Assembly: GCA_016840035.1 (NCBI GenBank)
Contig: JAEOTC010000030.1
Coordinates: 1 to 64,000, forward strand
Reading direction: 5' to 3'
Origin: Candidatus Hodarchaeota archaeon
GTDB taxonomy: Archaea > Asgardarchaeota > Heimdallarchaeia > Hodarchaeales > Hodarchaeaceae
Length of the DNA: 64,000 nt
Position 1 is the stretch's first letter. Every line of letters starts with the position of its first letter. Under the pieces are notes generated by a model, which ran no database searches, was not told the DNA's origin, and saw only the letters and a program-made list of their open reading frames with translations. The position numbers and the translations under genes were made by a program. Below are positions 28,373 to 33,244 of the stretch, one piece after another.

Positions 28373-28489
28373 CGCCGGGGGAGAGATTTGAACTCTCGAG
28401 CTCAAAGAGCACATGCTTTGTGGTAAAAAGGATTCCTCCTGACCACAGTATTTCCAGGCATGCTTCCTGCCGGACTAGAATACCCCGGC
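28373..28489 (-). tRNA. tRNA-Ser(GGA) with 34-nt intron at 37/38 (28418-28451)
   Basis: Acceptor GCCGGGG/CCCCGGC, discriminator G, long variable arm GCTC-TTT-GAGC, CATGC-CTGGAA|intron|A-GCATG. Confidence 0.92.
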
Positions 28490-29003
28490 TGTCCGAATTG
28501 TTGTTTATTCGAAGTTTACGAATGTAAATAGGTCTTATTGGAACTTCTGTAACTAAACTTTAACTTATTCTCAATTACTGTAATGAGATCGCTTAATTAA
28601 GCAGCTCTCCTTCATTTTTCAGGTTTTTAACAGTTGTTTTTTGATCTTTTCTTGAGACTTTTTAGAATTATGATTTCAACGAAATATTTAAGCAGGATTT
28701 TTTATTTAAGGCTGAAATTCAAGGTAAATTGTATTTTACCTAAATTAAATCACCTTAGGAATTATAAAATTGTACATGTGTTATGATACTGGGTGAATAA
28801 GAGAGAATATTTAGCCATTACAACTGATAAGCGAAATTAGTCGTAAATAATCATTTTAGTGATGGAATTTATGGACTTGCCTTGAATATTCTTTTTTTGT
28901 CGGCATTGGGAAAATATTTGAAATAAGACTAGACTTATATTAGTAGGTATTAGACCTATTCCTAAACAGATTTATCTGAACTTGCGATAAGGAGATTTAT
29001 TTT

Positions 29004-30689
29004 TTGAGAGAAACATTTGTAAAAACTTCAAGAGGACTTCTCACATTAACAGCGGTTGGCATTTTCAGCATTGTACTTGGTTTTCTCTATTATTCTGGCG
29101 TGGCTTCGGCAGATAGGTTACTATTAGGACTAGATTACAAAATCCTGTTTGCTTTCGGCTTTTACCTTACAGTTATGACTTTACTACCTTCTTTGTCAGT
29201 GATGGATGCCAGAGGGAAAACAAATGTAAAGAAGATATATCCTCATTTAATACTCTTTTTCTGTATCAGTATTTTAGTCATTATTTATTCATTATTAGTT
29301 TACGGAGAATTTATCACTTCAGTTGACACAGAGATAACTACCTGGTTTGATTTCTTTTCAATTGCTGGCATTATCTATTGTATAAGTTTATTACCATTAC
29401 TGTTTGGTGTTCGTGATCGTGATCGATTGTGGAATCTCAAACTTGTTTACTTACTCCTAATTATTGTTGGATTGGTTTTAGAGATACTCTCTATGCTAGT
29501 TTATGGCCATTATATTGACGAAATTCTTGAAGGACTCCCACTAATAGGAGGTACATCTTGGGATGTCTTATTCTTTGGTGGAGGGCTTTTTCTAATCCTT
29601 GGAATTTTTCCGTTACTGTTTTCTGCTAGCCATGGCTTTCGAAATTTTCTTGATAGCACTCGGATACTTTGGTTAATCGGAGTTATCAGTGGACTAGTAT
29701 TGGTATTCATATCGTTCTTAATTAGTATTGAGGTTCTTGAATCCAATTTCCTTCTGGATACTGAATGGCAGGTAATTTATTCTTTCAGTGGTTTATTGCT
29801 ATTTTCAACAGCAGCTTTTCTCTCAAGTTCAAGAAAATTTAGTGGTATTTTAGGAAAATTAAAGATTCTATGGTTTTTAACACTGCTTATCGGCGTTCTT
29901 ATGGTGATAATTTCTTTCTTCCTTCTGGTAGCGTCTTCTTCTGAAATACAAGATCTGTTAGGCATAACAAGTCAAATATATACATTTATGGGTTATTCTT
30001 GGGATATAATGTTTATGTTTGGAGGTGTATTTTCCTTCCTCTCCATGATTTTCATTACTTCAATTTTATATTTTGAGACTGAAGAGGTTAGTGGAGATTT
30101 TCAGACTTCAGATGTTTCTACCGACTCTTTCCTTGATTTGAAGACCACTCCAACAGAAATGGTTACTTATCTTGAAATCTTGAGTAATAATGAGAGTAAT
30201 CTGATTAATCAATTCAAAGAAGCTGTTCGGGATGATAAATTCCGTCCACGTGTTTACGAATCTCTTGTGAAACATTACGAAGGACGTATTAAATCTTATA
30301 AAACAAAGATTGGCAGTCTTAGAAAAGCTAAACCCGGGACTGCAGAAGCTGACAAGGTTGGTGCACTTTTCGACTCCGTACTTGGTGAATCTCCTTCAGC
30401 AAAGCCAGCAACGAAACCTCCTGTAATAGAATCGAAACCCGTCGGTCTCCCATCATCACCACCACCCCCCCCCTCTACACCACCTGTTGCCCCTCCTACG
30501 ATACCAACAGCAGCTCCCGTTCCCCCAACTTCAGCTCCAGCGATACCTGAACCTGCAATGCCAACTGGACAACCGAGTGATTCTCCCTTAGATTTAATTG
30601 CTGATGCAAGATCAACGAGTATTGCAGAATTACGAGGAGAAATGCTTAAAGAACTTCGTCGGTTAAGAGAAATATTCAAAGAGGAATAA
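29004..30689 (+). CDS. Polytopic membrane protein with repeated TM hairpins, polyproline region and C-terminal amphipathic helix
   Basis: About 10 TM segments in aa 1-355; helical domain; PSSPPPPPSTPPVAPP; tail SIAELRGEMLKELRRLREIFKEE. Confidence 0.8.
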   Translation: MRETFVKTSRGLLTLTAVGIFSIVLGFLYYSGVASADRLLLGLDYKILFAFGFYLTVMTLLPSLSVMDARGKTNVKKIYPHLILFFCISILVIIYSLLVYGEFITSVDTEITTWFDFFSIAGIIYCISLLPLLFGVRDRDRLWNLKLVYLLLIIVGLVLEILSMLVYGHYIDEILEGLPLIGGTSWDVLFFGGGLFLILGIFPLLFSASHGFRNFLDSTRILWLIGVISGLVLVFISFLISIEVLESNFLLDTEWQVIYSFSGLLLFSTAAFLSSSRKFSGILGKLKILWFLTLLIGVLMVIISFFLLVASSSEIQDLLGITSQIYTFMGYSWDIMFMFGGVFSFLSMIFITSILYFETEEVSGDFQTSDVSTDSFLDLKTTPTEMVTYLEILSNNESNLINQFKEAVRDDKFRPRVYESLVKHYEGRIKSYKTKIGSLRKAKPGTAEADKVGALFDSVLGESPSAKPATKPPVIESKPVGLPSSPPPPPSTPPVAPPTIPTAAPVPPTSAPAIPEPAMPTGQPSDSPLDLIADARSTSIAELRGEMLKELRRLREIFKEE

Positions 30690-30740: not shown

Positions 30741-32612
30741 CTATTGCCATAGAATAGCTAAATTATCATCTTGGAATGCTCGTTGAAAGATTTTAGCACT
30801 TTCACTATTAGTTCCTAACTTAATTTTTCCAGATTTTGATGTGGTTGCGGTGAAAAACTCGACTGGGAAGGAATCTTGAGACTCCTGGTAGAAAAAGCTG
30901 ATATCTTTATTTTTTAATCGTTTAGGAAAATTGATTGTAATCGTCCGTTTTTGAAAAGCAATATTTTGTCGTTTAAGATGGCTCAATCTTGAATTGCTAA
31001 GTTTGGTAGGAGATTTATTTACATCAAGTTTGATTCTCAAAATTCTCTCAAGCATCTTTATAGTTGTCCCTTTCTGGCCAATAATAAGAGGTATATCTTC
31101 TTCATGGGCATGTATTACAAATCGATGCCCAAACTTATCTTTGGGAACAATTTCAACTGATTGGGTTGTGTATTGTTCAACTACCTCCTTTATCTCGGAA
31201 ATCTGTTCGTAATTTACTTTTTTCGTGCTTTTATGTGATTCTTCTAATGGAATCACTACGGTTTGTTCCCCAAATGTGTACATCTCATAAACAATGTTGT
31301 CAGTCAAAAAATCACGCACTTCAACAACTGGTCGTGCAAGATCACTTTCAACTAACCCTGATGGAACCTTCACAGTCATCTTGACTTCGAGAATTGTTTG
31401 TATTTGGCCAGAATCAATATATAATATTGTATCAAGGACACTAGGAATTACTCCTAATTCAAGTTTGCCGATGAATCTTTGTATGGCATCTATAGCGGTA
31501 CTCGAATGAATAACTCCAATTAGACCAATTCCAGCTAAACGCAGATCTGTGTATAGTCGAAAGTCATCGTGATCTCTGATTTCATCAAATATAGTATAAT
31601 CGGGTCTTGATAATAAGAGAATATCGTGAATTTCTGAATGCGTACCAAAATTCTTCGAATATTGTGTAATCTCTGCCTTTAAATCAAGATCTCTGGGGGA
31701 TTCAATTGTTTTGATGATTTTGCCCTTTTCATAATAGAATAGTGCTAATGCTCTTGTAAAGGTAGTTTTTCCTGCACCAGGACTCCCTGCGACCAAGATC
31801 CCCTCAGCTTTTTCTTCAAGGCGCTGTATTAAACGTGATTCTAGTTCATATTCCTCTAATGCCATCCTTTTCAATGGACGAACCGCAGTAATTTCCCACC
31901 CATCTGAAAACGGAGGACGGATTATCACAATGCGTCTATCCTCAAACTGAACAATTGTCGAATTTTCTCTGGCTATTTCGATAAATGTATCAGGAAAGAA
32001 ATTCGCTTTTTCGATGATATCCTCAGCAAACTCAACTATCGTACTTTTGGAAATAATTTCAGAAGAAAATTGTGTAAATCGAATACTACCCGGTTTTCCT
32101 TTTTTTACGAACACATTTGTACCTTGTTTGATGTGAATGCTCATTGTTTCATTATCAAAAAATTTATCAATTTTCAATTGTTTATCAAGTTGTTTTATCA
32201 GTCTTGGTTCGACATATATGGTTTCTACTCCCATTGATTGAGCACTCATATCTTGAATCTTATCCGAAGTAACAAGAATGCCTCCTTCTTTCCATGCTAA
32301 TTCACGAATTAATGCATCGATCTCTCCCAGTTCAAATTGGCGTGGTTTTCTTCCTGCTACAGAAAATATAACATCGTTTTCTTCACAGATGGATTTTATT
32401 AGTTTAAGCTCTTGGAAACCTTCAGTTCCCTTTTTTTTTTCTTGGTTTGCCTGATTTTCGAGCTCTAAAATAAGTGCAAGATGGATAATCACAGATGATC
32501 CTGGAAGAATTTGATCATTTTCAATTAAATTCCTTAATCCTCCATTAATGACCGTAGAAGTGTCTGGAATGTAGCGATTCTGTTCTGAATCGATATTATA
32601 TCTTCCTACCAT
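30741..32612 (-). CDS. PIN-domain P-loop ATPase with KH domain (PINA family)
   Basis: PIN motif IPDTS...ELENQAN; GSPGAGKTT; RPDYTIFDEIR; KH IIGQKG. Confidence 0.9.
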   Translation of the reverse strand: MVGRYNIDSEQNRYIPDTSTVINGGLRNLIENDQILPGSSVIIHLALILELENQANQEKKKGTEGFQELKLIKSICEENDVIFSVAGRKPRQFELGEIDALIRELAWKEGGILVTSDKIQDMSAQSMGVETIYVEPRLIKQLDKQLKIDKFFDNETMSIHIKQGTNVFVKKGKPGSIRFTQFSSEIISKSTIVEFAEDIIEKANFFPDTFIEIARENSTIVQFEDRRIVIIRPPFSDGWEITAVRPLKRMALEEYELESRLIQRLEEKAEGILVAGSPGAGKTTFTRALALFYYEKGKIIKTIESPRDLDLKAEITQYSKNFGTHSEIHDILLLSRPDYTIFDEIRDHDDFRLYTDLRLAGIGLIGVIHSSTAIDAIQRFIGKLELGVIPSVLDTILYIDSGQIQTILEVKMTVKVPSGLVESDLARPVVEVRDFLTDNIVYEMYTFGEQTVVIPLEESHKSTKKVNYEQISEIKEVVEQYTTQSVEIVPKDKFGHRFVIHAHEEDIPLIIGQKGTTIKMLERILRIKLDVNKSPTKLSNSRLSHLKRQNIAFQKRTITINFPKRLKNKDISFFYQESQDSFPVEFFTATTSKSGKIKLGTNSESAKIFQRAFQDDNLAILWQ

Positions 32613-33244
32613 CAGATTTCCTCCTCCTCAATGTTATTAGACGGAGAAAACTCATCTTTAAATTCATATTCTAGGTTATTATACTCTAGCTCTAATTGAG
32701 AAGCTTGGTAGTATGTGACATCTCCCAACCTATCAATAACAGATAAAAGTAACTTTTTTCTATCAATCTTTGCCTGTTTTACAATTTGATCAAGCAAATC
32801 GAGATCAACGTCCTCACCTTCAGGAAGCGGATAAATCACGGTTTTACTTACAGATTCTCCAGGTTTACCCCCTCTTGAGTATATTCTGAACGGAGCAGTT
32901 ATTCGAGTGCCAATACTTACCACATATCCTCGATTGCGTAAATCTTTGTAAACTAAATATCGACTCCAAAATTTAGGGTTGAGTTTTGTGAAATGAACCA
33001 CTAGTTCATCTGTGGAAAGAGTTTCTCCCGTTTTTTCTGTTTCTAATACAATCCTCCCTCTATCTAAAAGTAATAATATTTCCTCAGGTTCTAAATATAA
33101 TGTCTCCTCTGAACTCCAACGGCCAAAATACCCATTTTCAAAAATTTCAGTAGCTAGTGGTTTGTTTAATTGTAGCTGAGACATGGACAGACTAAAAGGT
33201 ATAGATGGTGGAGATTCATCTTTGGATGATGGTTCTATTGTCAT
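32612..33244 (-). CDS. endA: tRNA-intron endonuclease subunit (possibly non-catalytic)
   Basis: YLVYKDLRNRGYVV, FRIYSRG, RKKLLL, GDVTYY; no His at the expected catalytic position. Confidence 0.85.
   Translation of the reverse strand: MTIEPSSKDESPPSIPFSLSMSQLQLNKPLATEIFENGYFGRWSSEETLYLEPEEILLLLDRGRIVLETEKTGETLSTDELVVHFTKLNPKFWSRYLVYKDLRNRGYVVSIGTRITAPFRIYSRGGKPGESVSKTVIYPLPEGEDVDLDLLDQIVKQAKIDRKKLLLSVIDRLGDVTYYQASQLELEYNNLEYEFKDEFSPSNNIEEEEI

Follow-up and report, generated by a model that had tools for sequence, protein, structure and literature searches.

The bacterial tether ZipA, with its P/Q-rich linker, and FtsZ, with its C-terminal linker and conserved peptide, share a design in which a membrane anchor or a polymer body, a disordered linker kept for its length and composition, and a short conserved docking element are combined, and this design appears to recur in the protein described here. 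In archaea, arcadin-2, the crenactin regulator of Pyrobaculum calidifontis, has been described as ending in a small conserved helix that a linker, unconserved and presumably unstructured, separates from the rest of the protein, and its last 17 amino acids (aa) alone bind the hydrophobic groove of crenactin (PMC5173319). Asgard archaea have actin, profilins and gelsolins; nucleation, elongation and membrane attachment of their filaments are still unexplained. As of 2022, the Asgard machineries that would use profilin and polyproline were called 'yet to be discovered' in a passage of PMC9433394. Here we analyse a stretch of 64,000 nucleotides (the window) from a Candidatus Hodarchaeota archaeon, in which the open reading frame (ORF) 29004..30689 (+) encodes a putative membrane-anchored proline-arm adaptor of 561 aa plus stop. 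By analogy, arcadin-2 may be the closest functional precedent documented for the end segment of this protein.

The likeness to arcadin-2 lies in the plan, a small conserved C-terminal helix together with an unconserved linker. However, arcadin-2 is soluble and is encoded beside crenactin in the arcade cluster, whereas the query is polytopic and its gene lies among housekeeping genes; the tryptophan stressed for the arcadin-2 peptide in PMC5173319 has no equivalent in the query tail, which is without tryptophan. The bacterial tethers have no sequence relation to the query, and its docking element would, unlike theirs, be a C-terminal helix on the membrane protein itself, in a family confined to Asgard archaea.

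Sequence comparison identifies the query as the polytopic, Hodarchaeales-type member of a pan-Asgard family built of a head, a proline-rich arm and an end helix. We consider it, with a probability of roughly 0.55, to be an arm fixed in the membrane on which a conserved cytosolic partner docks. Its block of ten transmembrane (TM) helices, arranged as five hairpin repeats with both ends predicted to lie inside, would anchor the protein; the proline arm of 60-80 aa would act as an extended flexible spacer and may also offer weak polyproline sites; and the end helix would dock like a peg, its conserved face inserted into the conserved cytosolic partner. The partner would thereby be held or concentrated at the membrane, and profilin-actin might use the proline arm.

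The end helix and its distribution in Asgard archaea

Conservation was analysed in alignment A1, which contains the query and 26 of the 38 homologues returned by a word-indexed search (27 sequences). Three near-identical full-length homologues (P0003, P0005 and P0006) and the shorter or partial ones (P0009, P0022, P0024, P0025, P0030 and P0036-P0039) were excluded. Mean pairwise identity is 0.98 for the end segment (the tail, SPLDLIADARSTSIAELRGEMLKELRRLREIFKEE; aa 527-561, 30582..30686, +), 0.72 for a helical block upstream of it, 0.50 for the TM part and 0.32 for the proline arm. The tail varies at just two positions, I532 (I/V) and E561 (E/D), while the other 33/35 are invariant, which is evidently far more conservation than chance would give. 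In a pattern search across L003-L024, 22 loci that all belong to one genus with the query, 20 tail-coding stretches were found, exact matches alone being counted, and all 20 differ in DNA sequence, with synonymous variation at 34/34 non-Met codons. The sole amino-acid change among these 20 tails is the final E to D, seen in two of them. Such distinct DNAs coding for a near-identical protein clearly point to purifying selection at the protein level, and not to the recent spread of one DNA segment, as the cause of the invariance.

The proline-rich arm (aa 463-526; 30390..30581, +), which directly precedes the tail, is of a different character. It is 64 aa long in the query, with 38% Pro and one P5 run, and across the 27 sequences its length (61-80 aa) and its Pro content (32-49%) are kept, but not its sequence.

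Within the tail lies a core, IAELRGEMLKELRRLREIF (aa 540-558; 30621..30677, +), which is shared across Asgard archaea and is predicted to be a helix with one conserved and one variable face. In alignment A3, made of 23 Asgard tails, an L and an M of the core are invariant (23/23) and R, E, L and R are each present in 22/23. Hydrophobic residues occupy core positions 0, 3, 7, 8, 11, 14, 17 and 18, and the freely varying positions 2, 5, 9, 12 and 16 fall on one helix face. Variability confined to one face fits a helix about three quarters of whose surface would be packed, whether in a partner's groove or within a bundle. The core motif hydrophobic-x-x-L-R-x-E-M-[LM]-x-E-L-x-R-L-[KR] is present in the query tail, which scores an expectation value (E) of 1.1e-15 against the A3 profile and is itself among the sequences from which A3 and a second tail profile, A2, were built; independent relatives score between E 1e-10 and 1e-18 against these profiles. 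A search of the tail in the ESM Atlas gave no usable neighbour, single-helix matches being meaningless.

The 38 relatives from the word-indexed search are 38-80% identical to the query and, where a source name is given, are assigned to Heimdallarchaeota, Hodarchaeales, Hodarchaeota or Promethearchaeota. A phmmer search run exhaustively against 1.84 billion representatives returned 30 proteins at E<=0.001. Distant relatives at 27-34% identity, labelled as Hodarchaeales, Odinarchaeota or Thorarchaeota metagenome-assembled genomes (MAGs), keep the plan of the query, in which numerous TM helices precede a helical domain, a long stretch of polyproline and this same tail. An earlier note on this DNA, made from the sequence alone, had raised the question of whether other Asgard proteins carry this tail, and they do so widely: profile A2 (11 tails) has matches in 239/400 genomes of the phylum at E<=0.01, and profile A3 (23 tails from DNA references) in 287/400 at E<=1e-4, including 67/90 high-quality genomes. 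Family f31 scores weakly and has a divergent-tail form with one TM helix (1-TM) in 5/5 sampled genomes, and families f24 (0/7) and f25 (0/5) have no A3 match. Against 5.8 billion proteins, A3 gave 247 matches, and every one with a named source is Asgard, the labels comprising Hod-, Heimdall-, Odin-, Hel-, Loki-, Baldr-, Sif- and Thorarchaeota. For one of these matches, P0137, the Pfam entry PF27509 is listed.

The relatives present the arm and the tail on different heads. Membrane-anchored relatives of about 260-365 aa, found both in the sister families within the class and in further families, mostly have one TM segment and in a few cases two or three TM windows, and soluble relatives of about 200-260 aa with a helical head occur in other Asgard families. 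The order of head, Pro-rich arm and C-terminal helix is common to all of them, and the arm directly before the tail is Pro-rich and poorly conserved in the relatives as in the query. Comparison of the helical domain (aa 378-462, 27 sequences) with the 120 aa after the TM part of 12 relatives having one to three TM segments gave an hhalign probability of 91% (E 1.1e-6, 60 columns). Nothing significant was found in Pfam for ten soluble or 1-TM relatives; a match to CCDC53, a WASH subunit, on an Odin protein lies in coiled-coil sequence and below the cut-off (16.5 against 24.6 bits), and was not used. A literature search, with supplementary tables outside its reach, found no description of the family.

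Two further settings of the motif were seen. A Sec23/24-like protein of 552 aa (L045:1365-3020, -; genome G196, family f20), which scores 39.8 bits for Sec23_trunk and 37.7 bits for Sec23_BS, has an internal tail core at aa 475-489, and a similar 559-aa ORF in genome G146 also scores (E 1.1e-5). P0079 (344 aa, labelled by NCBI as an Odinarchaeota MAG) carries three tandem tail motifs at its N-terminus, followed by a block like the short semi-conserved motif of the query described below and then by an unassigned C-terminal domain.

The genome of the query also encodes a soluble paralogue (G000:C263:2590-3327, -, equivalent to L002:1489-2229, -), which is cut by the contig end; its helical head is followed by about 150 aa of Pro/Thr-rich arm and by a variant of the tail. 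This paralogue is 238-250 aa long where it is complete in relatives, and shorter related forms have 201-218 aa. At least two matches to profile A2 are present in 21/22 genomes of the genus, that of the query included. A second copy of the 10-TM gene stands in tandem in 5/22 genomes of genus g1 (G060, G065, G067, G071 and G074); one copy has an internal stop and one is just a short ORF. At L062:8289-12187, an 87-aa endonuclease remnant lies between the 10-TM copies, and rpiA follows them.

The membrane block and the cytoplasmic domains

The N-terminal part of the protein (aa 1-362; 29004..30089, +) is a polytopic membrane block. Kyte-Doolittle analysis reveals ten hydrophobic segments, at residues 11-33, 47-65, 82-100, 118-136, 148-166, 188-206, 224-242, 256-274, 291-309 and 337-355, the eighth of which (256-274) is weaker than the other nine. 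The count of about ten TM helices made in the earlier note is thus reproduced, and the remaining elements that it had listed (a helical block, a Pro-rich stretch of low complexity put at about 65 aa, and an end segment) also lie where it had placed them. For comparison among repeats, the block was divided into units of two TM segments (aa 1-70, 71-140, 141-212, 213-280 and 281-362) and the sub-alignments of these units were compared by hhalign. Seven of the ten unit pairs gave probabilities of 79-97%, and the remaining three (U1-U3, U1-U5 and U2-U5) gave 6.5-13%, against 0.2-19% for ten controls with reversed units. On the strength of this comparison, the membrane block is evidently composed of five tandem 2-TM hairpin repeats.

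Orientation was assessed by counting lysine plus arginine (K+R) in the loops of the A1 sequences. The N-terminus together with the loops after TM2, 4, 6 and 8 has 11-19 K+R per sequence, the loops after TM1, 3, 5, 7 and 9 have 1-5, and the first group exceeds the second in 27/27 sequences. The positive-inside rule therefore predicts a protein with N- and C-termini inside and hence a cytoplasmic tail, in agreement with the topology on which the proposal in the earlier note depended. Relatives in which this arm and tail follow a single TM segment, or occur on a protein devoid of TM segments, support the cytoplasmic tail independently; in the 1-TM relatives, basic residues follow the TM segment on the tail side.

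No match to the membrane block was found in Pfam or NCBIfam, and no paralogue of it was found in the genome of the query. The TM block of the homologue P0007 has no structural neighbour in the ESM Atlas (TM-score at most 0.35), and a search of the PDB with the whole-family profile returned just designed toroids and a weak ABC-transporter match, which were dismissed. P0062, P0069 and P0073 (370-383 aa) are stand-alone forms of the 10-TM block that end just past TM10, without arm or tail; P0062 is labelled Hodarchaeota by its source.

Three segments connect the membrane block to the proline arm. An acidic juxtamembrane stretch (aa 363-380; 30090..30143, +) has a mean identity of 0.42, and the 25 aa after TM10 contain on average 6.6 D+E. 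It is followed by a conserved domain (aa 381-438; 30144..30317, +), predicted to be cytoplasmic and helical, in which the helical block reads YLEIL...YESLVKHYEGRIKSYK and invariant columns form a QFK.A.R.DKFRPRV.E block in A1. This domain has no Pfam match. SHOCT (PF09851) does not match the query at E<=10, and in a scan of ten soluble or 1-TM relatives it reached E 0.27 on P0121 (11.5 bits against a 27-bit cut-off). The third segment is a short semi-conserved block with DKVGALFDSVLGE (aa 439-462; 30318..30389, +), which has a mean identity of 0.51 and counterparts in distant relatives. For the protein as a whole, nothing above threshold was found in Pfam and NCBIfam.

The gene and its neighbourhood

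The ORF starts with TTG, and its start residue occupies the same aligned position as those of the homologues in A1. The hexamer AAGGAG, read directly at 28989..28994 (+), lies 9 nt before the TTG and is Shine-Dalgarno-like; it may serve in translation initiation. An antisense ORF (30296..30679, -) is a Gly-rich mirror of the proline arm and was taken as spurious.

Neighbouring genes encode the ribosomal proteins S13, S4 and S11, a tRNA, a PIN / T2SSE-type ATPase / KH protein and a tRNA intron endonuclease. The tRNA (28373-28489, -; 117 nt, presumably with an intron) scores 41.5 bits against Rfam RF00005 and was missed by ARAGORN; it sits in the 930-bp gap upstream of the ORF, and the tRNA intron endonuclease gene (32612-33244, -) is about 4 kb away from it. 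In family f4, the 1-TM form is likewise flanked by the PIN-ATPase-KH and endonuclease genes, and in some genomes by rpiA (ribose-5-phosphate isomerase A), so that synteny with rpiA, the PIN-ATPase-KH gene and the endonuclease gene is common to f1 and f4 loci. The window has a single copy of the 10-TM gene and no rpiA at that place. None of the neighbouring genes suggests a function for the protein. Our reading of this arrangement is that the 10-TM gene would be the positional orthologue of the 1-TM gene of sister families, its anchor having been replaced by the 10-TM block.

Candidate partners and competing explanations

By analogy with arcadin-2, actin would be the single most likely partner of the docking arm, a possibility that we regard as tentative. 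Both actin and profilin, which the earlier note had expected from what is known of Asgard archaea, are represented in the genome of the query. The actin (C289:26249-27355; 439.7 bits) shows 96-100% identity inside its genus and 74-86% in the phylum at large. A candidate profilin (C229:7113-7379) scores 17.4 bits against Pfam Profilin and matches PDB entry 6YRR, the heimProfilin described in PMC8410842, with E 1.8e-25. A more far-reaching proposal is that the family is the membrane-proximal actin-assembly machinery of Asgard archaea, in which the head would fix the site, the proline arm would gather profilin-actin, and the end helix would grip the hydrophobic groove of actin in a monomer or at a filament end; we consider this unlikely. 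If it is true, the form with ten TM helices found in Hodarchaeales would do, from within the membrane, the work of elongators of the Ena/VASP and formin type, as an analogue that arose independently of the eukaryotic ones or before them.

Several results weigh against a docking arm and against actin as the partner that it holds. The actin gene lies on a contig other than that of the 10-TM gene, and no cytoskeletal gene was found near the 10-TM gene; the 17 loci compared show housekeeping synteny alone. For heimProfilin and polyproline, PMC8410842 reports weak binding, with a dissociation constant of 3.3 mM for the full-length protein and of 0.3 mM after N-terminal truncation, and in A1 a run of at least five Pro occurs in 8/27 sequences, so that the P5 run of the query is not conserved. 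The main text of PMC13716822 names one profilin, five gelsolins and an ARF GTPase as co-immunoprecipitated with Lokiactin, and no such adaptor among them. Actin is present in 10/12 genomes of families f24 and f25 and the tail in 0/12; actin therefore does not require the proline-arm family. The presence of the tail core inside the Sec23/24-like protein would be explained as well by a docking or zipper motif of general use as by one specific to actin. Among shuffled sequences, a fraction of 0.10 reach the hydrophobic moment of the helix (0.50), so that this value is unexceptional. Profile A2 has no match at E<=10 among solved PDB chains, in a sequence library with a floor of 20 residues, so that the crystallised arcadin-2 peptide of 17 aa falls outside this search. 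WH2 has no match at E<=10 anywhere in the genome (21 candidates scored), and VASP_tetra (PF08776) none at E<=10 on the protein, the tail or five relatives.

Families f22-f25, with the tail in 0/14 genomes, have the most divergent actins, their best E values lying between 1e-115 and 1e-142, where most other families reach about 1e-190 or better. As counter-examples, each from a single genome, families f8, f10 and f30 have canonical-looking actin and no tail match, and co-occurrence with actin was set aside as evidence, being confounded by phylogeny.

That the tail might be a true homologue of WH2 or of the EVH2 end of Ena/VASP, and the protein an archaeal member of those families, is suggested by its layout, in which a Pro-rich region precedes a short L-, K- and R-rich helix containing an L-basic-basic-hydrophobic motif, and by the presence of actin and profilin in the genome. 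WH2 proteins (WASP, WAVE, WIP and thymosin beta-4) are alike in having a short helix and a basic L-x-x-hydrophobic motif after a Pro-rich region, and the tandem tail motifs of P0079 may be likened to the tandem copies of multi-WH2 nucleators. However, the conserved core of the query family is predicted to be a continuous helix of about 19 aa, and the L-R-R-L stretch of its tail (L-K-K-hydrophobic in relatives) lies inside this helix about 15 residues after the first hydrophobic one. In canonical WH2, a short amphipathic helix precedes an LKKT/V-type motif at a fixed short distance, and the spacing from the first hydrophobic residue to the basic motif is probably longer in the query. Motifs like LKKT have been discussed in PMC9433394 for Asgard gelsolins. 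Ena/VASP proteins, built of EVH1, a Pro-rich region and EVH2, are similar in that a short charged Leu-rich C-terminal helix follows the Pro-rich region, and the lineage of the query is reported to have a profilin able to bind VASP polyproline. Their recruitment proceeds via EVH1, while the query protein is anchored by ten TM helices, has no match to EVH1 or VASP_tetra, and has Pro runs that are short and not conserved. WH2 (PF02205, 23.1-bit cut-off) was not matched at E<=10 by the whole protein, by its 45-aa tail or by five relatives, and no EVH1 domain was found by Pfam, the N-terminal 362 aa being the ten TM helices. The single genome-wide match to VASP_tetra (E 2.46) lies on contig C2 and not in ORF 29004..30689, and the sole sub-threshold match on the tail and five relatives is the unrelated OAR motif (14.8 bits against a 20.1-bit cut-off), which was judged to be chance. 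Together with the search of solved chains, these null results indicate that the protein is not a member of the WH2 or VASP families; the kinship suggested in the earlier note has thus already failed at the sequence level, and we regard such homology as very unlikely.

Three other explanations place the tail in a different context. The end helix may be a self-association element, through which the tails of the 10-TM form and of the soluble paralogue of about 250 aa would zip into a bundle and cluster family members at the membrane. Its straight hydrophobic stripe (i, i+3, i+7, i+11, i+14 and i+18, with a periodicity of 11 residues), the two or more tail matches in nearly every genome of the genus, the use of one motif by many heads, and the three tandem copies of P0079, which could fold back on each other, are in favour of such a bundle. 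However, the charges at the edge of the stripe (R, E, R and K) are as conserved as the hydrophobic residues across the phylum, a tail with 33 of 35 positions fixed in the order goes beyond the usual need of a simple coiled coil, and the VASP_tetra model is unmatched; we consider self-association improbable, about to the same degree as the actin-assembly proposal. Somewhat less probable still is docking on a trafficking or remodelling hub (an Arf/Sar-like GTPase, a COPII-like coat or ESCRT/Vps4) instead of actin, the proline arm then being either a spacer or a ligand that gelsolin-like domains or others would bind. The C-terminal MIM helices of ESCRT-III proteins likewise stand behind a Pro-rich linker, and the Sec23/24-like protein with the internal core motif points in the same direction, as does the ARF GTPase co-precipitated with Lokiactin (PMC13716822). 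Against this, no register of the tail fits the MIM1 consensus when compared by eye, the tail profile finds nothing else in the genome of the query below E 0.3 and no C-terminus resembling that of ESCRT-III, and no trafficking or ESCRT gene is adjacent to the 10-TM gene. Pro-rich stalks are common in extracellular proteins, and the proline arm and end helix could in principle form a surface stalk for S-layer or partner-cell contact. This is extremely improbable in view of the basic N-terminus, the ten TM segments, the positive-inside bias seen in all 27 sequences, the basic residues on the tail side of the TM segment in 1-TM relatives, and the many relatives in which this arm and tail occur on proteins lacking any TM segment.

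Our preferred reading remains that of an arm which is fixed in the membrane and would dock a conserved cytosolic partner. One docking module would have moved between different anchors, namely ten TM helices, a single TM helix, soluble heads and a Sec23/24-like protein. The tail appears to have been frozen by selection across the whole order and largely across the phylum, and it offers a defined bait peptide of 20-35 aa for the partner. Whether it proves to be actin, a GTPase, a coat or the family's own members, this partner would be a hub of Asgard cell organisation.

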